A DNA stretch of 64,000 nt from contig JBAYIY010000007.1 of assembly GCA_041665365.1 (NCBI GenBank), positions 11,103-75,102 on the forward strand, written 5' to 3'. This stretch comes from Patescibacteria group bacterium. GTDB taxonomy: Bacteria > Patescibacteriota > Patescibacteriia > UBA9570. The position numbers were made by a program, and so were the translations under genes. The notes under the pieces are model-generated. The model saw only the letters and a list, made by a program, of their open reading frames with translations. It did not search any database and was not told the DNA's origin. Positions within the stretch are counted from its first letter, which is position 1. Each line of letters begins with the position of its first letter. Positions 3,147 through 48,543 of the stretch are shown here, in pieces.

Positions 3147-3266
3147 TAAAATCACGCAGCAAGAATTTTCTATAATTCCATATCGAGCCGATCCAAATAG
3201 AGAATTAAATACGCATTAATAACCTAGCTGCGTAAGTAACTACTCGAAATGTACTTTTATGCAGGG
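3147..3266. repeat. copy 1 of a ~110-120 bp direct repeat (second copy at 4603-4713)
   Basis: AAAATCACGCAGCAAGAATTTTCT.TAATTCC.TATCGAGCCGATCCAAA.AGAGAATTAAATACG.ATTAAT.ACCTAGCT...TATGCAGGG shared at roughly 90% identity, with an 11-nt indel. Confidence 0.8.
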
Positions 3267-4602: not shown

Positions 4603-4713
4603 AAAATCACGCAGCAAGAATTTTCTGTAATTCCGTATCGAGCCGATCCAAACAGAGAATTAAATACGTATTAATTACCTAGCTACTATTCGAGATGTAC
4701 TGCTATGCAGGGG
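4603..4713. repeat. copy 2 of the direct repeat; its right end overlaps the 3' terminus of tRNA-Trp
   Basis: See copy 1; ends in ...TATGCAGGG, which is the complement of the tRNA 3' acceptor end. Confidence 0.8.
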
Positions 4714-7821: not shown

Positions 7822-7950
7822 CACCTCCCCAACCCTCCTATCGTAGGAGGGAGTTAAGAAATTATCTTAATATTTATCCTACCCTTCCTACAATAGGAAG
7901 GGTGCCCGAGTCATCGAGGGCGGGATGGTGTTTTCCTGATTGGAGGTGTT
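7822..7950. repeat. dispersed repeat family B copy: two GC-rich hairpins CCCTCCTA-TCG-TAGGAGGG and CCCTTCCTA-CAA-TAGGAAGGG, with a GGATGGTGT tail, between convergent genes
   Basis: Related copies at 40492-40612 and 42760-42902, and a partial copy at 20768-20824. Confidence 0.75.
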
Positions 7951-17075: not shown

Positions 17076-17651
17076 TTATACCAGATGCAACTTGTGTTCG
17101 ATTACCGTCACACGTTGATTGAGCTCGGTCACCTCAAACCGGTAAGCCACGTTGTCTTGGCGTAATTTAAGTTCATCCTGACCTTGTTCAAGATTAGATA
17201 ATCTATAATCAACTCGATCGAAGCGTTCATCGACCGAATCAAAACCCAGTTTAGTGGCCATGGCTAAATCATCTACCGTAGTAGTTAAATTATCCATTCT
17301 TGTGGATAAGCTATCTACTTTACCATCAACATGATCCACTTTAGTAGATAAACTATCAACCTTTGTATCTAAAATATCTGTTTTCGTCGATAAACCATCA
17401 ACTTTGGTATCTAAACTATCCATCCGTGTGGATAGAGTGTCAACTTTAGTGGTTAATTTATCCGTTCTCGTGGATAAACTATCTACAGTTTTAGTTAATC
17501 CATCCGTTTTTGTGGATGAAATACCAACTATATTAACTAAACTACTGACGATTGCTGTCAAACCGTCCATTTTGTCTGCTAGATTGTCTAGCGTGATTGT
17601 TTTCTTCATAAAGTGTTTCCCAATACTTTGGCGGCGCTTTTGTAAACACAC
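17076..17651 (-). CDS. coiled-coil protein with about 10 tandem 11-residue repeats (xKVDxLSTxxD)
   Basis: VDSLSTRTDKLTTKVDTLSTRMDSLDTKVDGLSTKTDILDTKVDSLSTKVDHVDGKVDSLSTRMDNLTTTVDDL; matching 33-bp periodicity in the DNA at 17290-17560. Confidence 0.55.
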   Translation of the reverse strand: MCLQKRRQSIGKHFMKKTITLDNLADKMDGLTAIVSSLVNIVGISSTKTDGLTKTVDSLSTRTDKLTTKVDTLSTRMDSLDTKVDGLSTKTDILDTKVDSLSTKVDHVDGKVDSLSTRMDNLTTTVDDLAMATKLGFDSVDERFDRVDYRLSNLEQGQDELKLRQDNVAYRFEVTELNQRVTVIEHKLHLV

Positions 17652-33197: not shown

Positions 33198-33222
33198 ATT
33201 TACCCCCACGTATAGACATGCA

Positions 33223-33303
33223 ATCATGTAGAGACGTGCCATCATGTAGAGACGTGCCATCATGTAGAGACGTGCCGGCGGCACGTCTCTACATGATGGC
33301 ACG
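33223..33303. repeat. palindrome family C: three tandem copies of ATCATGTAGAGACGTGCC followed by the inverted half GGCGGCACGTCTCTACATGATGG, forming a perfect stem of about 20 bp
   Basis: Read directly; lies in the rplJ upstream region. Confidence 0.8.
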
Positions 33304-34485: not shown

Positions 34486-34500
34486 CCACTAAATTGTTGT

Positions 34501-34596
34501 CTTTACCCCCAACCCCCTTGCAGGGGGCTAAGAAAAGATTTTTCTAAATTTTCTTTCTTATCCCCCTGCAAGGGGGACAGAGGGGGTAAAATCCGA
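34501..34596. repeat. MITE-like repeat family A copy: TTTACCCCCAACCCCCTTGCAGGGGGCTAAGAAAA ... TTATCCCCCTGCAAGGGGGACAGAGGGGGTAAAAT (terminal inverted repeats, each containing a CCCCC-TGCA-GGGGG hairpin)
   Basis: Other copies at 38960-39032, 40066-40220 and 42429-42562 (the last inverted, with a 37-nt insertion in one hairpin loop). Confidence 0.8.
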
Positions 34597-38959: not shown

Positions 38960-39032
38960 CTTTACCCCCAACCCCCTTGCAGGGGGCTAAGAAAAAATGT
39001 TTTTAAAAAACTTCTTTGGGGGACTAAGGGGG
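38960..39032. repeat. repeat family A copy (right arm degenerate)
   Basis: CTTTACCCCCAACCCCCTTGCAGGGGGCTAAGAAAAAATG...GGGGGACTAAGGGGGTACATTCC. Confidence 0.7.
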
Positions 39033-39087
39033 TACATTCCAGTAAGCCTTTTGCGAGTTTTATTTTTTTCTGTTATAATTTTAACCA

Positions 39088-39951
39088 ATGAATTATCTTC
39101 GCATTGTCTTTGCCCATTGGATTGCCATATTGTTCATCACCACTGCGGCCGCGGCGCTTACGGTCGGGTTATCTTTTATTCCTACCCAGATGTATTCATC
39201 GGAGGTGTCTTTATTGATTGTGCAGAAACAAGCGCAGTATGTTGACCCTTACACATCACAGAAAGCTGCCGAAAAGTTGGGGCAAAATTTAGTGAATGTG
39301 ATCGACTCATTTGATTTTTTAAACCGCGTTTTGGCCACCGGCACAGTCTCACCCGATTTATTTAGTGCTTCCACTGATGCCCGTAAAAAACAATGGGAAG
39401 CCATGACTGATGCGGAAATGTTTAGTAACACTGGTGTGTTGCATATCACCGCTTATGCCCCCACCGCCGGTGCCGCTGAAGATGTGGTGATGGCCATGAG
39501 TACAGTGCTCACTACTAATTCATCAGATTATCATGGTGGGGGAGATACCGTTGAGATTAAGCTCATCGATGGGCCGGTCACATCGGATAGTCCGGTAAAA
39601 CCAAACATTCCATTAAATGGTGCGATTGCGGCTGTGTTAGGCCTAATCGCCTCGGCGGCTGTATTTATTGTTTATGAAGAAACCAAACGGTTACAAGATG
39701 AACAAGCCAAGGTGAGGTATGTGCAAACCGTCACGCCTGGTAGAGACGTGCCGCCGGCACGTCTCTACGATGATCGGATTGAAAAATCTGATCAAATCAT
39801 AGAGCCCCAATATAAGGTATTAGATGAATACCCCAAACAGCCATATGTGTATGGTGCGGAATTGAAGGATGAAGAACCTCGCCAAGGGGCGGGTGAACCT
39901 CGCCAAGGGGCGGGTGAACCGGTGTCGATGCAGGATCATTTGAAAAAATAG
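39088..39951 (+). CDS. Wzz/YveK-like polysaccharide chain-length-determinant N-terminal domain protein with a C-terminal EPRQGAG tandem repeat
   Basis: N-terminal TM helix followed by YSSEVSLLIVQKQ... typical of Wzz/Cap8A N-termini; a family-C palindrome (39740-39768) and a 21-bp tandem duplication (39886-39927) lie inside the ORF. Confidence 0.4.
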   Translation: MNYLRIVFAHWIAILFITTAAAALTVGLSFIPTQMYSSEVSLLIVQKQAQYVDPYTSQKAAEKLGQNLVNVIDSFDFLNRVLATGTVSPDLFSASTDARKKQWEAMTDAEMFSNTGVLHITAYAPTAGAAEDVVMAMSTVLTTNSSDYHGGGDTVEIKLIDGPVTSDSPVKPNIPLNGAIAAVLGLIASAAVFIVYEETKRLQDEQAKVRYVQTVTPGRDVPPARLYDDRIEKSDQIIEPQYKVLDEYPKQPYVYGAELKDEEPRQGAGEPRQGAGEPVSMQDHLKK

Positions 39952-40065
39952 GGGTTTTCCCCAGTAATTTAGGTAAAAAAACGAGTTCAAATAAATGGAC
40001 TCGTTTTAGTATTGACAAAAAGTAGAAATAATGCTAAATTGTTCAGTTATTTTTGGGGACATATG

Positions 40066-40220
40066 TACCCCCTAGCCCCCTTGCAGGGGGTAAAAGATAA
40101 CAATAAACTTATGCACCTTTTCACTATGAACAGTTAGTACGAACGGGGATACCATGAGTGTACCCCCAACCCTCATCTCTTATCCCCTTGAAAGGGGGAC
40201 AGAGGGGGTAAATTCCGGAG
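40066..40220. repeat. repeat family A copy (long internal region), immediately abutting leader module copy 1
   Basis: GTACCCCCTAGCCCCCTTGCAGGGGGTAAAAG ... CTTATCCCCTTGAAAGGGGGACAGAGGGGGTAAATTCCGGAG. Confidence 0.75.
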
Positions 40221-40760
40221 TGGGTAAACACCAGTTAGTCTCACACGAATCAGATGAGAACACCATCAAAGTGAAGGTGTTGCCATGTGGTTCGTCTGTA
40301 TAGCCGGTGATCAGCAATGATCGCTGGCTGTCATGAATCACTCAACCCGAAAGGGTTAAGCACATTTACAATCTACTTTCCTACTTCGACTCGTTTCACT
40401 CGCTCAGTATAAATTTATTGAGCATGTAAGCTTGTCGAATGATCATCGGTAGCGATATACAGACCTCATCAATATACATACTTCTTTGAGTACACCACCC
40501 TAGCCCTCCTATTCTAGGAGGGAATAAGAATAAATTTTCTTACTCCCTTCCTACAATAGGAAGGGCCGGGGATGGTGTATTCCGGAGAGGGATACGTATC
40601 CGGAGAGGTCTCCATATCGCTACCGATGAAACCAACAATATCGGAGCTCGGTTCCCCAACGGGGAGACATTCGTCGCGGCAATTTCGCCGTGATGTATGT
40701 CCACCCGGACGTGAACCGGGACCGATCGACTTCACTCGACTACATGGAGCTACGAAAACA
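40204..40760 (+). repeat. leader module copy 1 (~555 bp), a mosaic duplicate of 42546-43053, ending at the start codon of the first GC-rich gene; contains a family-B repeat bracketed by a 23-bp imperfect inverted repeat (ATCGGTAGCGATATACAGACCTC / GAGGTCTCCATATCGCTACCGAT)
   Basis: Shared blocks GGGGGTAAATTCCGGAGTGGGTAAACACCAGTTAGTCTCACACGAATCAGATGAGAACACCATCAAAGTGAAGGTGTTGCCATGTGGTTCG, AATCATCGGTAGCGATATACAGACCTCATCAA, the whole family-B element, and GAACCGGGACCGATCGACT...GGAGCTACGA.AATGACG. Confidence 0.8.
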
Positions 40761-42236
40761 ATGACGTTCAAGAACATCCTCGCGATCTTCACGTTCATCT
40801 TCGCCATTCTCGCCCCGGCGACCGTCGCCCAGGCCCAGGAGAAGTGGGAGGATCCAAAAGTGGGTCCGTTCACTCTCGGGTACTGGTCGAAGCTCGATGC
40901 CGGCGCGACCAGTGTCGACGCCGCGGCGGCCGGGATCATGAAGAACTTCAAGGAGTGTGAGAGCAAGTACGGCCAGGGTGGGTGCTACATCCAGTTCGAA
41001 TCATCTACTGACATCAACCGCTGGGACAACACCAAGAATGGCAAGGACGACGCATTGCACGGTGGGCTCGGAGAGGGACGCACCGCGGTCCTCAAGGACG
41101 CGGTGTTTTCTCGATCCGCAAGGATCAAGGAATACTCGGTCACCGACTACCCCCACCACGGTGCGAAAGATGGATGGCGGTACTCCTGGGCGACGATCAT
41201 GCCCAAGGAAGGTGCCTCCGCGATGCCGAAGGTGTCGGCCGACCCCAACAAGAGGTGGAGCTTCCTCACGGAAGTGCTCCTCCGCCAGACCGATAACCTC
41301 TGTCCCACGATGGTGCGGGCGGACGCGGTCACGCGAACCTACACCCTGCAGGGTCAAACCTGCGGGTGCAGCACGTTCGATGCAGTGCCCAGCACCCGCC
41401 AGTTGGAGGTCAGGAACGACCTCACCTGGTTGGGAAAGGTCGTCGCGGACCGCTCGAAGTGGTCCGACGCGAAGACTTTGACCTGGACGGAAGTCCGGGC
41501 CGCTCTCGAGGAGGGCACCGAGTCCCGCGTCATCGAAGTCGACGCGCTCGGCGATCCGTCCTCCACGCCCGACGGTCTGTCCGTTGAGTTCGTGGAGTCG
41601 GAGACCCTGCTCCGGGTGCAGTTCCCGGACAGGTGCTCGCCGATCCTCGACGCCGCGAAGGCAGAGGCCGACGCCAAGGCGCAAGCCAAGGCTCAGGCCG
41701 ACGCCGACGCCCGCGAGTCCGCAAGGCTCGCGGCGTACAACACCGACTTCATGGTCGGTGGGTCGGTCGCGGGTACGGGGACGTTCATCCCCAAGTACAG
41801 CCCCTTCAACCCGGGCAGGGGTTTCGACCTCGCCGGGCACGTCGAGGGCGGTGCGGTGATCGGCGGCGGGTACGGCGCGTGGGCTTTCGGGCTCGGCGTC
41901 GGCCCGTCGTGGGACCCGAACTGCCTGACCCCCGGCCAGGTTGACCTCGAGGCCTTCACCGGCCCGTGGCTCAACAGGCAGGGGAAGGTCGGGTTCTCCG
42001 CCTTCCTGAACGGATCTGCGGGCTTCACCATGTACAACGGTGAAGTCCTCACCCCGCGGTACCGCCTGGGTCTCAACCTGGGCGTGCCCGTGCAGGTGGA
42101 GCGTGAGCTCTACCTGGTTCCCCAGATCGGCCCCGTGGTCGACTGGGTGAGCGGGCAGGTGCAGGCGACCGGCGGCTTCGCGATCACCGAGCGAGTCGGG
42201 ATCGCGGGTGGTCTGCGGATCATCAAGACGTTCTGA
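40761..42236 (+). CDS. GC-rich, probably horizontally acquired secreted protein with a C-terminal OMP-like beta-barrel region (C-terminal Phe). The start is set at MTFKNILAIF; the ORF-track start at 40572 lies inside the repeat leader
   Basis: Signal peptide MTFKNILAIFTFIFAILAPATVAQA; AKAEADAKAQAKAQADADAR low-complexity linker; glycine- and aromatic-rich alternating C-terminal region ending ...GLRIIKTF; codon usage strongly GC3-biased, unlike flanking genes. Confidence 0.6.
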   Translation: MTFKNILAIFTFIFAILAPATVAQAQEKWEDPKVGPFTLGYWSKLDAGATSVDAAAAGIMKNFKECESKYGQGGCYIQFESSTDINRWDNTKNGKDDALHGGLGEGRTAVLKDAVFSRSARIKEYSVTDYPHHGAKDGWRYSWATIMPKEGASAMPKVSADPNKRWSFLTEVLLRQTDNLCPTMVRADAVTRTYTLQGQTCGCSTFDAVPSTRQLEVRNDLTWLGKVVADRSKWSDAKTLTWTEVRAALEEGTESRVIEVDALGDPSSTPDGLSVEFVESETLLRVQFPDRCSPILDAAKAEADAKAQAKAQADADARESARLAAYNTDFMVGGSVAGTGTFIPKYSPFNPGRGFDLAGHVEGGAVIGGGYGAWAFGLGVGPSWDPNCLTPGQVDLEAFTGPWLNRQGKVGFSAFLNGSAGFTMYNGEVLTPRYRLGLNLGVPVQVERELYLVPQIGPVVDWVSGQVQATGGFAITERVGIAGGLRIIKTF

Positions 42237-42428
42237 TCTGAGTAGGAAAGTAGGTTAGGGTGAGGGGGTATAGGTTGTGTCGCAAGTCTGCGAACAATCT
42301 GTACCTCCTCCCCACCTACACAAATATGAATAAGGGATAATGTCTCTCGAGGTAGTGACCTCGGTAAACATGGTTCCTGATTCAACTGAATAAGGAATCG
42401 GTCTTTAAAAATAATCTATGGTTAAAAC

Positions 42429-42562
42429 CTTTACCCCCTCTGTCCCCCTCTCGCCTCTGCGAAGCCGCTACGGCGGAGCACGGTGCAGGGGGATAAGAAA
42501 AGAAGTTTTAAAAATATCTTCTCATAGCCCCCTGCAAGGGGGTTGGGGGTAAATTCCGGAGT
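42429..42562. repeat. repeat family A copy in inverted orientation, with a 37-nt GC-rich insertion in one hairpin loop
   Basis: TTTACCCCCTCTGTCCCCC-[TCTCGCCTCTGCGAAGCCGCTACGGCGGAGCACGGTG]-CAGGGGGATAAGAAAAG ... TAGCCCCCTGCAAGGGGGTTGGGGGTAAATTCCGGAG. Confidence 0.75.
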
Positions 42563-43053
42563 GGGTAAACACCAGTTAGTCTCACACGAATCAGATGAGA
42601 ACACCATCAAAGTGAAGGTGTTGCCATGTGGTTCGAAGAGTCATAGTCGATCAGCAATGATCGCTTGTGACCACGAAACACAATTTGTTCTTTAAAATCT
42701 TCTGCTAAGAATCATCGGTAGCGATATACAGACCTCATCAAGCATACACACTTCTTTGAGTACACCACCCTAGCCCCCCGCCTTGCCGGCGTGGCAGGTC
42801 CTATTCTAGGAGGGAATAAGAATAAATTTTCTTACTCCCTTCCTACAATAGGAAGGGCCGGGGATGGTGTATTCCGGAGAGGGATACGTATCCGGAGAGG
42901 TCTCCATATCGCTACCGGTGAAAACAATACCGGCGTGCTCGGTTCCCAGAATGGGAAAGATGCGGTTGTGGGAATGTTCCCATGACATGTGTTCTACCCT
43001 GTTCAAAAGAACCGGGACCGATCGACTACACAATTTCGACTGGAGCTACGACA
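42546..43053 (+). repeat. leader module copy 2 (~510 bp) preceding the second GC-rich gene
   Basis: See copy 1; the central segment differs (about 50 nt versus about 120 nt), and the first hairpin of the family-B element carries a CCCGCCTTGCCGGCGTGGCAGGT insertion. Confidence 0.8.
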
Positions 43054-43839
43054 ATGACGCTCAAAAACATCGTGATCTCGCTCGCGCTCGTCGTCGGTTG
43101 CAAGATGGGCCCGGTGCAGGAATGTGACTCGGACTCGGACTGCTTCGAAACCAACACCAACTCCGATACCGACACCGACGCGGACACGGACACGGACGCC
43201 GACGCTGATACGGACACGGACTCCGACACCGATACCACCGAAACCGACGTGGACAACGACGGCGACGGGTACACCGTGGACGGCGGGGACTGCAACGACG
43301 CCAACGCCAGCGTCCACCCGGGCGCGACCGAGTACTGCAACGGCGTCGACGACGACTGCAACGGGTCGATCGACGACAATGACACCGACGGGGACGGGTA
43401 CGTCTCCGACGACTGCACGTCATATGACGGAGTCGCCGGCCTCCCCGGTGGTGATTGCGCGGATTCGATCGGGACGACGGCGTCCTGGTCGAACAGCGAT
43501 ATCCACCCGGGGCAGTTGGAAATGTACGACTGGATCGACACTAACTGCGACGGCACCGCCGACGATGGATGTAGTATGTTGTGCGACACCGACGGCGACG
43601 GATACGAGAATTTCGAACAGGGCAGCGGGCCCGAGTTCGAGTGCGTGGACGCGTCGTTCGTGGCGGATCAGTCCGCCTCGAGCAGCCCGTTCGATACGAC
43701 GATCTCGTGGACGTATGCCTCCAGCGGAGTGGTTTACTCCGGTGTGAACGCAACGTGCGAAATGACGGCGGCCCAGCAGGTCGATCCGTCAACCTGGAGG
43801 ACGATCACGTCCATCCAGGCCGAGATGGCCACCCGCTAA
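43054..43839 (+). CDS. GC-rich, probably horizontally acquired lipoprotein with a (D-T/D-A)n linker and repeated Cys-rich MopE-type 'putative metal-binding' motifs
   Basis: Lipobox LALVVGC; DTDTDADTDTDADADTDTDSDTDT; DGDGYTVDGGDCNDANASVHPGATEYCNGVDDDCNG and DGDGYVSDDC...DTNCDGTADDGC repeats. Confidence 0.6.
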   Translation: MTLKNIVISLALVVGCKMGPVQECDSDSDCFETNTNSDTDTDADTDTDADADTDTDSDTDTTETDVDNDGDGYTVDGGDCNDANASVHPGATEYCNGVDDDCNGSIDDNDTDGDGYVSDDCTSYDGVAGLPGGDCADSIGTTASWSNSDIHPGQLEMYDWIDTNCDGTADDGCSMLCDTDGDGYENFEQGSGPEFECVDASFVADQSASSSPFDTTISWTYASSGVVYSGVNATCEMTAAQQVDPSTWRTITSIQAEMATR

Positions 43840-45966: not shown

Positions 45967-45989
45967 TGAGATTATTATAACACATCAAT

Positions 45990-46024
45990 CCAGTAGAGAC
46001 ATGCCATGGCATGTCTCTACTGGA
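45990..46024. repeat. family-C perfect palindrome CCAGTAGAGACATGCCATGGCATGTCTCTACTGG (17-bp stem) between the GC-rich minus-strand gene and the O-antigen-ligase gene
   Basis: Read directly; likely transcription terminator or insulator. Confidence 0.7.
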
Positions 46025-46103
46025 TTGATAAAAAAAAGAGGCCCCGGGAGATTGTCATGTACATGCGTAGTACAGACAACCTCAACCGGGGCGTCCAAAT
46101 TCT

Positions 46104-47159
46104 TTACTTGACGGCGACCGTAGGGTTCGCCACCACGAGGATACTCCCCATGATGGTCTCCACGTCGCCGGCGTAATTCCCGCCGGCATTGTGGAGGTCG
46201 ATCCCCTCGGCCTTCACCACCTCTTCCCGGACGCCGTCAGCGACCGGGAAAGCCACCTCGCCCTCGCCGTACGAATCGTCGACGACGAAGAAGAAATGAT
46301 CCCGGGCGACTTCACAAAGTCGTTTGCCCGGGAGAGTGGTCAGACTCGAACACTTGAACCCCTCCGGCAGCACGAGGATGCTGCCCATCGTGAGTTCCGG
46401 AATCGTTCCGGTGTACTCACTCAGGGCGTAGCTATCCCCGGAGCCGGCGAGGGGCCCGGTGAAGCAATCGTAGCCCGACGAGGCGCCATCGCCGCAAGAG
46501 AGGTGGGTATGATCCACCTCAATGGGCAACGGCCGCCCGATCGGGCCAGTCTGAGTCAATTCTCCCACACGCACCGCCTGGGTCGCGGTCGTGTGGGAGC
46601 CACCGTGAGCCCCAACCCAGCGGGTGGAGTCATATCCCTTCTCACACGCGCTGAACGGCGCGGAGTCGGGGAGGACCCACCCGGACGAGCCGTCGAAGTA
46701 GCTGATTTCAACAACGGTACCGTCAGGCTGCAGGGCCGTGACGATCCCATTGTTGTACAGATCATCCGACGTGTCCCTCATGGCGAAGGAATCGGGGAGG
46801 TAAACCTCCCTCGTTCTCCTGCCATCGGGGGCTGTCACGGTCACCGGTGACGAGTCTTTCGACCCGTCGAGGACAAAAACCGGGTCGATGTCGACCCAGT
46901 CAAGTCCTCCGTCCCAGTCCGTCTCGACCGTCCGGGCGATCTTGCGATCAACCTGGAGGTCACGGATCTGGAACGGCACCGAGGCCCAGCACTCGGCCGG
47001 GGTCTCGGTGTCGGTGTCCGCGTCAGTGTCAGAGTCGGTGTCCGTCTCCGCTTCGGGGCAGGTCGCCCCGGGCAGAGACGGATCACAATTGAGCTCTCCA
47101 CACCCCGCCACCAAAATGGTGACCAGGACGAGGAGCAGCTCGATGATGTAGCGCAACAT
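46104..47159 (-). CDS. GC-rich, probably horizontally acquired lipoprotein (351 aa) with a TDTDSDTDADTDTE linker
   Basis: Lipobox ILVAGC; good RBS AGGAGcagtcATG; GC-rich codon usage; several conserved Cys/His (HTHLSCGDG) but no confident family assignment. Confidence 0.55.
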   Translation of the reverse strand: MLRYIIELLLVLVTILVAGCGELNCDPSLPGATCPEAETDTDSDTDADTDTETPAECWASVPFQIRDLQVDRKIARTVETDWDGGLDWVDIDPVFVLDGSKDSSPVTVTAPDGRRTREVYLPDSFAMRDTSDDLYNNGIVTALQPDGTVVEISYFDGSSGWVLPDSAPFSACEKGYDSTRWVGAHGGSHTTATQAVRVGELTQTGPIGRPLPIEVDHTHLSCGDGASSGYDCFTGPLAGSGDSYALSEYTGTIPELTMGSILVLPEGFKCSSLTTLPGKRLCEVARDHFFFVVDDSYGEGEVAFPVADGVREEVVKAEGIDLHNAGGNYAGDVETIMGSILVVANPTVAVK

Positions 47160-47286
47160 GACTGCTCCTTACCCCTGGTCGGGGTGGGGGGACTGTTTGT
47201 TCGTCAAGTAATATGAATTTGGAAAGAACTAGTGTCGCTTACAGACAAAATTTGCCCATAAACGAACCGCACAATATACCCTATTT

Positions 47287-48543
47287 TTGACGTTTTGTCA
47301 AGGGTTCTGCTACAATAAGCCCGTGAATATTCTGCAAATCAATAAATTCTTCTATCGGCGGCGGGGGGCAGAAACATACTTATTTGATCTCTCTGAATTA
47401 TTAAGAAGTAAAGGTCATAATGTCGCCGAGTTTGCTATGGTTCATCCAGACAACGAACCATCACCGTGGAGTGAGTATTTTGTGTCCGAAGTTGATTATA
47501 GCCAAAAAACTTTAGCGGGAAATATTAAAGCGGCAGCGAGAATGTTTTGGAGTACAGAAGCGCAAAGAAAACTGGATGCGTTGTTGGATGTGTTTAAACC
47601 AGATGTGGCACACATTCATAATATCTATCATCAAATTAGTCCATCTATTTTAGTCACCTTAAAGAAACGGGGGATACCGATAGTATTAACCCTGCATGAT
47701 TACAAATTAATTTGTCCGAATTACGAAATGTTTACGGGCAACCAAGTGTGCATGCGCTGTAAAGGGCGTAAATATTATAATGCGGTGTTGCATAAATGTA
47801 TTAAAGGTTCCGTGGGTATGAGTGCACTGGTTATGTTTGAAATGTATCTGCATAAAATGATGCAAGTGTATGAACATGAGGTTGATTGTTTTATATCACC
47901 ATCACAGTTTTTAAAAAAACAAATGTTGGATTGGGGTGAGCAAGTGAAGCGCATCGAGGTTATACCAAATTTTGTGCGTGCACCCATCACGGACGGTGTG
48001 ATGGACGGGTCGGATGCATCCCGTGTAAACGATGTCTTATACGCAGGTGCTCTTTCCCGCATCAAAGGGGTCGATTTAATCCTTGACAATTTCCGGAAAA
48101 ATCGGTACTCTGGCCGGTTACTATTAGCTGGGTCTGGGCCAATGGAGGCCGAAATAAAAGCTGAGAGTAACGAAAATATTGTGTATTTAGGACAGCTTAG
48201 TAAACAGGAATTAGCCAATCGGGTTAAAGAATGCCGGGCGGTGATTGTGCCATCGCGGTATCATGACAACTTTCCCTATGCAGTGCTTGAAGCTTTTGCA
48301 GCCGGGAAACCGGTGATTGCCAGTCACCGGGGTGGTATGCCAGAATTGGTGCAGCCGCGTCACACTGGCTGGTTATTTGAACCAACTAAACCAGACAGTT
48401 TAACAGCGGCTTTAACCGAAATGTTTAAACGAGACGATTTAGTAAAACAGTTTGGTGAGGCGGCCTGTCAAGTAGCCAAAACACACAACCCAGAAAAACA
48501 CTATGAAACGATTATTTCTCTTTATCAGTCTCTGCTTAGCTAG
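47287..48543 (+). CDS. GT4-family glycosyltransferase (probable GTG start at 47323, VNILQINKF...)
   Basis: C-terminal E..AAGKPVIASHRGGMPELV typical GT-B/GT4 motif; candidate promoter TTGACG...TACAAT at about 47262-47292. Confidence 0.6.
   Translation: MTFCQGFCYNKPVNILQINKFFYRRRGAETYLFDLSELLRSKGHNVAEFAMVHPDNEPSPWSEYFVSEVDYSQKTLAGNIKAAARMFWSTEAQRKLDALLDVFKPDVAHIHNIYHQISPSILVTLKKRGIPIVLTLHDYKLICPNYEMFTGNQVCMRCKGRKYYNAVLHKCIKGSVGMSALVMFEMYLHKMMQVYEHEVDCFISPSQFLKKQMLDWGEQVKRIEVIPNFVRAPITDGVMDGSDASRVNDVLYAGALSRIKGVDLILDNFRKNRYSGRLLLAGSGPMEAEIKAESNENIVYLGQLSKQELANRVKECRAVIVPSRYHDNFPYAVLEAFAAGKPVIASHRGGMPELVQPRHTGWLFEPTKPDSLTAALTEMFKRDDLVKQFGEAACQVAKTHNPEKHYETIISLYQSLLS

Follow-up and report, generated by a model that had tools for sequence, protein, structure and literature searches.

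A candidate structured mRNA leader, present in two near-identical copies, upstream of envelope protein genes in Patescibacteria

The window analysed in this study, a stretch of 64,000 nucleotides from a Patescibacteria group bacterium (contig JBAYIY010000007.1), carries a mixture of housekeeping and envelope polysaccharide genes (uppP-like, MltG-like, L10, SUF, Wzz, Wzy, and several glycosyltransferases). Within this locus a long leader-like segment is present twice, as copy A (40204-40760, plus strand) in front of the gene g1 (40761-42236, plus strand) and as copy B (42545-43053, plus strand) in front of the gene g2 (43054-43839, plus strand), and a short related leader (47160-47301, minus strand) precedes a third gene, g3 (46104-47159, minus strand). 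The g1 product (gene 65% GC; GC content at third codon positions, GC3, 0.86) is exported, with a signal peptide and a predicted C-terminal OmpA-like beta-barrel; the g2 product (63% GC, GC3 0.85) is a lipoprotein with MopE-type Cys-rich repeats, and the g3 product (63% GC, GC3 0.79) is also a lipoprotein. The GC3 of these three genes, 0.79-0.86, stands against 0.26-0.51 in the other about 50 open reading frames (ORFs) of the window, which has about 41% GC as a whole.

Pairwise comparison within the window confirmed that copies A and B are true duplicates, as a first-pass annotation had proposed, and that they share a series of ordered blocks with 90-100% identity. The blocks are located, on A and B respectively, at 40204-40294 and 42545-42635 (91 nt, 100% identity), 40309-40325 and 42649-42665 (17 nt, GATCAGCAATGATCGCT, 100%), 40442-40472 and 42711-42741 (31 nt, 100%), 40474-40509 and 42744-42779 (36 nt, 94%), 40507-40635 and 42799-42927 (129 nt, 98%), 40713-40735 and 43009-43031 (23 nt, 96%), and 40758-40778 and 43051-43071 (21 nt, 90%), the last extending into the coding sequence. 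The blocks are collinear and the stretches between them are wholly different; these variable stretches are the hairpins themselves, in which the pairing is kept. The match crosses the start codons, MTFKNI in g1 and MTLKNI in g2, and identity stops after codon 7. The segment in front of the two different exported-protein genes thus comprises a 5' untranslated region (UTR), a ribosome-binding site, and the first codons, in agreement with the first-pass annotation; of the coding sequence only 7 codons, and not a whole signal peptide, are shared. The 23-bp inverted repeat described around about 135 nt is real, with a corrected length of 25 nt; it is 92% complementary and encloses 137 nt in copy A, and is 88% complementary and encloses 160 nt in copy B. 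The first approximately 12 nt from 40204 (GGGGGTAAATTC) belong to the tail of a dispersed hairpin repeat, family A, and lie outside the leader proper, and the family-B double hairpin, taken before as a part of the module, is present in both copies but as an insertion at the tip of a long stem. The window holds 4-5 occurrences of the key leader motifs where chance would give 0-0.26, and the strong structure claimed for the module was borne out by folding against shuffled sequences (z = -13.1 for copy A and -9.9 for copy B). Three assemblies made independently (JGI 3300037810, Logan SRR6484324, and ENA ERZ27249449) agree over the locus at 100% identity, and the duplicate is therefore not an assembly chimera.

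The conserved unit does not begin at the start of the duplicate, as had been supposed, but reaches further upstream, to a promoter at 40012-40040. This sigma-70-like promoter (TTGACA-17-TAAATT, 10/12 matches in a promoter scan) and a conserved initial transcribed stretch, CAGTTATTTTT, together occupy 40012-40055 on the plus strand, where the g1 leader transcript probably starts. Downstream on the same strand are one copy of a hairpin unit (40109-40132; loop UUAUGCAC, tail AUGAACA), recognized by sequence reading, and a family-A hairpin repeat (40156-40215; 93% identity over 40 nt to 34556-34595) that adjoins copy A and supplied its apparent start. Inside copy A, the P1 hairpin (ACGAAUCAG ... 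UGGUUCGU; 40245-40295), with a variable tip, is followed by the P2 hairpin (40302-40341), which has a GAUCA-GCAA-UGAUC core and then a conserved tail, CAUGAAUCAC; the outer stem of P2 differs in sequence between A and B but its pairing is preserved in both. A GUUCUUU-type motif, here AUUUACAAUCUACUUUCCUAC, is located at 40364-40384 (25 nt 100% identical to the related contig L025). Next is the long hairpin P4 (40443-40629), of which the conserved base, UCGGUAGCGAU / AUCGCUACCGA, corresponds to the inverted repeat and the tip carries the family-B insertion (about 40487-40583). The P5 domain (40641-40731) is composed of X (40647-40654), P5a (40654-40664), P5b (40666-40701), X' (40704-40708), and Y (40713-40720), and then a conserved ACCGAUCGAC. 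The Shine-Dalgarno sequence GGAG and the start of g1 (ATG at 40761, where the signal peptide begins) were read from the sequence at 40746-40763.

Between g1 and copy B, the 3' UTR of g1 (42237-42429, plus strand), which is also the start of the ancestral g2 leader, holds the blocks GUAGGAAAGUAGGU, AUGAAUAAGG.AUAAU, and AUGGUUCCUGAUUC, and a first UCUUUAAAAA motif. A scan of 42237-42429 found no terminator-like site between g1 and copy B, and g1 and g2 may therefore be co-transcribed. A family-A repeat (42430-42555, plus strand) adjoins copy B, in which P1 (42586-42636), P2 (about 42640-42672), the motif (42685-42709), P4 (42712-42921, with an extra 22-nt hairpin at 42777-42798), P5 (42933-43027), and the Shine-Dalgarno sequence (43042-43045) follow in the same order. 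The g3 leader, on the minus strand, consists of a promoter (TTGACA-17-TATATT, 47301-47273) and a GUUCUUUCCAAAUUCAUAUUAC motif from 47229; its P4 hairpin, though present in the g3 leaders of relatives, has been lost.

Small out-of-frame ORFs at 40690-40764 and 42989-43057 end in ATGA across the start codons of g1 and g2. Translationally coupled upstream ORFs are unlikely here, because no Shine-Dalgarno sequence precedes them and in relatives the corresponding stretch extends the N terminus of the protein in frame. Also rejected were small leader peptides (MHxxx[LM]N) encoded by the UUAUGCAC...AUGAAC units: there is no ribosome-binding site, ATG is absent from some of the units, and their variable 9 nt are base-paired to an upstream arm. 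A protein search for spurious ORF calls on other copies gave no match to the peptides encoded by the conserved leader blocks.

The leader anatomy was compared across the related contigs L025, L026, L027, L030, L031, L033, and L034, and, as global MAFFT alignment of whole leaders was poor owing to large insertions, the helices were compared module by module. The promoter block of g1, TTGACAAA..TAnnnT..GAGTTATTTTT, is also found upstream of g1 in L025, L026, L027, L030, and L033, while the L031 leader sequence begins inside this block and includes only the -10 element and GAGTTATTTTT. The general order of the g1 leader is the promoter (TTGACAAA-17-TAnnnT), GAGTTATTTTT, upstream hairpin units, P1, P2, the motif, P4, P5, the Shine-Dalgarno sequence, and the start codon. 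The upstream hairpin units number 1-3 in relatives, with the loop UUAUGCAC, the tail CUGAACA, a constant 9-nt spacer, and variable arms. The base of the P1 stem (consensus ACGAAUCAG...UGRUUCGU) is conserved in L025, L027, and L031 with its interior swapped for another hairpin; the P2 stem is kept and followed by CAUGAAUCAC, its loop being GCAA in the window and UUCG in the same three contigs. P4 has a base consensus of UCGGUAGCG/CGCUACCGA and a hypervariable tip with hairpin insertions that differ among genomes (L027, L031, L033, and L030), the tip in the g1 leader of L025 being without insertion. P5 consists of a CCC-loop-GGG hairpin, a variable hairpin, and a conserved 3' segment, RAMCGGGWCCG. 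The GUUCUUU-type motif stands before P4 in g1, g2, and g3 leaders alike. The conserved 3' UTR of g1 together with the motif, P4, and P5 makes up the g2 leaders of relatives, from which P1-P2 is absent; their g3 leaders consist of a strong promoter of their own, the motif, and a hairpin at the P4 position, which has a P4-type base in L026, L027, L031, and L033.

The leader precedes the orthologous genes and shares their strand in eight related contigs, including those with inverted gene blocks. The gene order Wzz, g1, g2, Wzy, g3, GT4 is complete in L027 and partial on the L025, L026, L030, L031, L033, and L034 contigs. All eight contigs fetched for g3 homologues represent the same locus beside Wzy, with GT4 adjoining where the contig reaches; other genes lie between g3 and Wzy in L029, L030, and L033, and g1- or g2-like genes follow the g3 locus where the contig is long enough. 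Orthologues of g1 and g2 are in the same order in L025, L026, L027, L030, and L034, and in L031 and L033 g1 is at the contig end. With only 65% identity of Wzz between the window and L005/L025, the divergence is deep. The orientation of the [leader-g1-leader-g2] block relative to Wzy is the same in the window, L026, L030, and L034, and opposite in L025, L027, L031, and L033, and in either orientation the leader precedes its gene and runs in the direction of the gene. No cassette swapping was seen among the relatives. As a separate observation, the metagenome-assembled genome GCA_964385285.1, from which L005 (CAYLOJ010000013) and L025 (CAYLOJ010000001) derive, shares the whole Patescibacteria-type locus with the window under what is probably the wrong title, 'uncultured Gammaproteobacteria bacterium'. 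Contig 13 of this assembly breaks 260 nt past Wzz, and contig 1 ends just beyond the g2 homologue. The 3' end of the Wzz-like gene of the window has a perfect 21-nt tandem duplication (39874-39915; EPRQGAG twice), which is absent in the L005 orthologue.

This fixed arrangement bears on the proposal that g1 and g2 are foreign genes delivered as portable cassettes, with the duplicated segment as an attC-like boundary. An integron model of this kind would have the inverted repeat act as a site of single-stranded DNA recombination, with g1 and g2 as captured genes, and the locus does share with integrons an imperfect, hairpin-capable inverted repeat (25 nt, with bulged positions), a strongly atypical gene composition, as the GC3 values above indicate, and the presence of the module at each of two adjacent genes with unrelated products. 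However, g1 and g2 form a fixed syntenic pair, in the same order and without turnover, in at least eight related contigs, where they are GC-rich too, with a homologous leader for each gene. A conserved promoter followed by the module stands 5' of the gene, while attC lies 3' of the cassette; the gene families, which are clade-restricted, show no GC-rich donor lineage. As described below, the P4 arms change in a compensatory manner from genome to genome, a pattern that does not suggest fixed core sites of the R''/L''-L'/R' type, and a G-U excess and a better sense-strand fold point to RNA. As the first-pass annotation had also noted for integrase and recombinase, the window showed no integrase, recombinase, transposase, or reverse transcriptase in Pfam scans, whose 39 ORFs take up most of the 64 kb. 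The integron model is already largely refuted and retains next to no probability. Recent horizontal transfer of the genes from a GC-rich donor was rejected on similar grounds, namely the conserved synteny, the GC-rich genes of relatives, and the tiny, clade-restricted families. For genome scans, the lesson is that atypical GC and a repeated module mimicked cassettes at a locus that, by comparison, is stable and vertically kept.

The conservation of RNA pairing was examined for each helix. In P4, 95.7% of cells were paired among 15 leaders of g1, g2, and g3, and 12 of 14 pairs were changed on both sides; none of 500 shuffles matched this observation, and slid registers gave 18-47% pairing. Among 16 hand-extracted leaders, P4 contained 16 G-U pairs against 4 A-C mismatches. 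The L025 leader, which has no repeat insert, folds at -132 kcal/mol (z = -9.8) in the sense and at -117 kcal/mol (z = -6.0) in the antisense direction, the sense strand being more stable by 15 kcal/mol. In P5, Y pairs either with X, closing the domain in the minimum-energy fold, or with the nearby X', giving a local hairpin. Both pairings persist through sequence change in nine leaders (X:Y 94%, X':Y 90%), their covariation scores being equalled by 1 of 500 shuffles for X:Y and by none of 500 for X':Y. A second mutually exclusive pairing exists besides P5, in which the P1 5' arm and CAUGAAUCAC compete for GUGGUUCGU. No known family accounts for these structures: the search against Rfam 15, which had been recommended with the first-pass annotation, matched only tRNA-Trp over the whole window at gathering score, and gave only sub-threshold chance hits on 39900-43200 with E up to 10.

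These observations altogether, a same-strand position at orthologous genes and pairing conserved by compensatory changes, as for a cis-regulatory 5' leader, favor the view that the two segments are paralogues of one type of mRNA leader, clade-specific, cis-acting, and highly structured, and were made near-identical by conversion or duplication within the genome; we give this reading a probability of roughly 0.6. From sequence comparison we infer that the element acts in the transcript, and on the best reading copy A would be the 5' UTR of g1, and copy B the g1-g2 intercistronic leader or the 5' UTR of g2. By analogy with known leaders, its best-supported role would be control of mRNA processing, stability, or translation. 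Such an unusually large and modular structured cis-regulatory mRNA leader has apparently not yet been described.

Several points weigh on the other side. The stem arms of P4 and P5 were hand-picked, which favors pairing, and the leaders are few and represent about five independent lineages. The more distant genomes L026 and L034 rearrange P4 and P5, so that 'family' is to be taken loosely. The inserted hairpin repeats supply a part of the very low folding energy of the window copies; transcription start, co-transcription, and processing are all deduced; and neither an intrinsic terminator nor a Shine-Dalgarno-sequestering helix was found for the candidate P5 switch. The leader was also not found outside the g1-g3 locus, in DNA scans that detect exact matches only and that covered no more of the source genome than the 64-kb window: exact-pattern scans of the genome contig collection and of viral contigs for the leader blocks gave no match, and the 19 matches among metagenome contigs were all chance 17-mers (AACCGGGACCGATCGAC with a nearby GGAG) in GC-rich coding regions. 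Phage and plasmid collections likewise gave no match when searched with the leader by BLASTN.

The hairpin repeats raise the question of whether the whole segment could be a functionless pile-up of selfish elements of the repetitive extragenic palindromic (REP) or miniature inverted-repeat transposable element (MITE) type, multiplied by ordinary segmental duplication. Family A, with the pattern TTTACCCCC..CCCCCTTGCAGGGGG..GGGGGTAAA, is found at 34500-34595, 38960-39045, 40060-40095, 40156-40215, and 42430-42555, and family B (ACACC.CCC..double hairpin..GGGATGGTGT) has a further copy at 7833-7940; both families are thus dispersed, as REP and MITE elements are, and occur in or beside both leader copies and elsewhere in the window, and other inserted hairpins occupy the P4 tips of L027, L031, L033, and L030. 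The leader core (P1, P2, P4 base, P5, and motif) is, in contrast, tied to orthologous genes and not dispersed in the window, since without the two inserts the leader recurs nowhere else in the 64 kb. Its elements keep position and order beside the orthologues despite the 65% identity of Wzz, with compensatory changes, and the insert-free L025 leader still folds at the z score given above. As a full explanation the selfish pile-up is refuted, and we regard it as very unlikely; it is true for 40156-40215, about 40487-40583, and 42430-42555. The hairpin-repeat families are intergenic and often located directly 3' of genes.

A different division of the locus would make the part from the promoter to P2 a separate small or long non-coding RNA gene, with the GUUCUUU motif as a second promoter for the g1 and g2 mRNA. 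In most leaders the motif holds a -35-like hexamer (TTTACA, TTGACA, TTGATA, or TTGAAA), in the g1 leader of L027 it is followed after 18 nt by TAGAAT, and the g2 leaders of relatives retain the motif, P4, and P5 while lacking P1-P2. The spacing to the -10-like hexamer is, however, irregular (14-20 nt), no terminator follows P2, and the promoter scan gave no site at 40364 or 42685. Moreover, the motif of g3 leaders is located about 70-90 nt downstream of a near-consensus promoter, which indicates that it is transcribed there. On balance, a second promoter at the motif is unlikely.

If the segments are instead a continuous leader, transcription would begin at the sigma-70-like promoter about 710 nt upstream of g1, and the RNA would fold the upstream hairpin units, P1, and P2, followed by the AU-rich GUUCUUU-type motif and, directly after it, P4; the P5 domain of about 90 nt would lie 20-45 nt ahead of the ribosome-binding site. 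The motif and P4 could form a processing and stabilizer element, cleavage in the AU-rich motif leaving an mRNA with a protective 5' stem, and P5 could alternate between X:Y and X':Y so as to tune translation or decay. Both the processing site and the P5 switch are proposed by analogy, the models being RNase-guided processing and leaders of the ompA and S-layer kind.

Long structured 5' UTRs stabilize mRNAs for abundant envelope proteins, as in the leaders of Escherichia coli ompA and the Lactobacillus S-layer gene slpA. The leader of the window resembles these in being long, with stable stem-loops, before genes for exported or outer-surface proteins, in having a first hairpin near a putative processed 5' end, and, for ompA, in the predicted OmpA-like barrel of g1. 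It is different in being several times longer (about 500-700 nt), modular, and common to three genes, in having an alternative-pairing domain, and in lacking any sequence or Rfam relationship, and its stabilizing role is putative. With riboswitch and attenuator leaders it shares the alternative pairing of Y with X or X', both surviving sequence change, and the second competition between P1 and CAUGAAUCAC, but there is no match to a known aptamer, and neither a terminator nor a Shine-Dalgarno-masking helix was identified. Patescibacteria (the candidate phyla radiation) are uncultured and mostly episymbiotic bacteria, about whose gene regulation very little is known. A co-varying leader of 500-700 nt common to three envelope genes, with no counterpart in Rfam, is therefore a concrete candidate for a regulatory RNA in this group.

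The origin of the near-identity of the two copies can be read from their distribution among relatives. P1-P2 is present once per genome in L025, L027, and L031, upstream of g1, and twice in the window. The region before copy B (42237-42429) retains the ancestral g2-leader blocks including the first UCUUUAAAAA motif, after which a family-A repeat with P1 and P2 follows, and then a second motif and P4; ancestral g2 blocks succeeded by A-type modules are what a transfer from copy A, by insertion or by conversion, would leave. When the P5 of the g1 leader is compared with that of the g2 leader of the same genome, the identity reaches 0.64 for the window and 0.63 for L030, and neither lineage's P5 exceeds 0.46 against any other genome; the g2 leaders of L025 and L027, in contrast, group with each other as orthologues (P5 identity 0.58). 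The clustering of P5 by genome in the former pair and by orthologue in the latter thus shows the homogenization to be lineage-specific, and it is recent in the window, where there are 0 differences in 91 nt. Recent gene conversion or duplication within the genome would have carried the family-A repeat, P1, and P2 over from copy A to copy B, the region from P4-P5 through codon 7 would have been homogenized between copies, and hairpin repeats of the host, families A and B, would have been inserted at tolerant sites of the leader.

Homogenization of this kind also recalls the vsp, vlp, and vsa systems of Mycoplasma, in which variable lipoprotein genes have conserved 5' regions, and the first-pass annotation had likened the locus to a variable-surface-protein expression site, a phase- or antigenic-variation system switched by inversion or gene conversion. 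Genes for surface lipoproteins or exported proteins here do share an upstream region and the start of the coding sequence with a neighbour, there is evidence for gene conversion between the two leaders, and the [leader-g1-leader-g2] block is inverted between related genomes. The locus differs in having only 2-3 genes with clear, stable orthologues, of which the two behind the duplicated leader have unrelated products, and no multigene family of silent or variable copies, no coding regions built of repeats, and no recombinase in the window; only 7 codons are shared, short of a whole signal peptide. The inversion distinguishes distant genomes and not members of one population, and the three assemblies, 100% identical, yielded no alternative arrangement. 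The comparison with an expression site did not hold, and a variation system of this type is most improbable.

The three genes downstream of the leaders are themselves restricted in distribution. For g1, a word-indexed search of 5.8 billion proteins found no relative, and an exhaustive HMMER search of 1.84 billion representatives found only 13; g3 has 13 homologues with 43-60% identity, and its product is assigned by NCBI to a 'Patescibacteria group bacterium'. The g1, g2, and g3 products are clade-restricted exported envelope proteins. In the AlphaFold model of g1, residues 329-490 form a C-terminal beta-barrel with F as the last residue, mostly with a block-mean predicted local distance difference test (pLDDT) score of 82-96, and the best PDB matches of the barrel are the transmembrane barrels of OmpA, NspA, Ail, and OmpW. 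Such a barrel is unexpected in a phylum regarded as lacking an outer membrane.

The genes of relatives corresponding to g1-g3 have GC3 of 0.85-0.93 in most cases and 0.62-0.65 in L026, against genome backgrounds of 41-45% GC. The GC3 excess of these three exported-protein genes thus persists across relatives with Wzz 65% identical, and no mechanism for it was found; GC3 of 0.8-0.9 kept across deep divergence is not explained by ordinary horizontal transfer and amelioration. A more far-reaching view would join these features: the leader would be a new large lineage-specific regulatory RNA and a true two-state switch (X:Y against X':Y) coordinating three envelope genes, and the GC-rich genes and the g1 barrel would constitute a host-interaction module, for instance of proteins for the outer membrane of a diderm host, or else the GC would be kept by recombination or conversion tied to the leader. 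We consider this extended view unlikely.

The g2 product of the window has 261 amino acids compared with about 370-440 for its homologues (L025 12984-14084; L034 3895-5043) and is without their conserved C-terminal ...TPALT..EC.ALF end. Ahead of the signal peptide, the g1 and g2 genes of relatives encode an N-terminal extension of about 20 further residues, in frame and GC3-rich (M..LF..F...NNG..M), located at 11080-11145 in L025, 13505-13564 and 15580-15621 in L027, and 5915-5980 in L031, and present also in L034 and L026, while g1 and g2 of the window are without it; the extension resembles an extended signal-peptide region.

Other repeats were observed in the window. Another hairpin family, GTAGAGACATGCC..GGCATGTCTCTAC, is found at 33207-33276 as three tandem 18-mers upstream of L10 and at 45985-46028 as a 20-bp terminator-like hairpin downstream of g3, and also in the leaders of L033 and L034. 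An 82-nt direct repeat with 94% identity (3148-3229 and 4603-4684) is located upstream of two adjacent minus-strand genes beside tRNA-Trp and may represent a second shared upstream region. Finally, 21-nt periodic repeats are present at 17271-17544 within the gene of a coiled-coil protein (17076-17651, minus strand).

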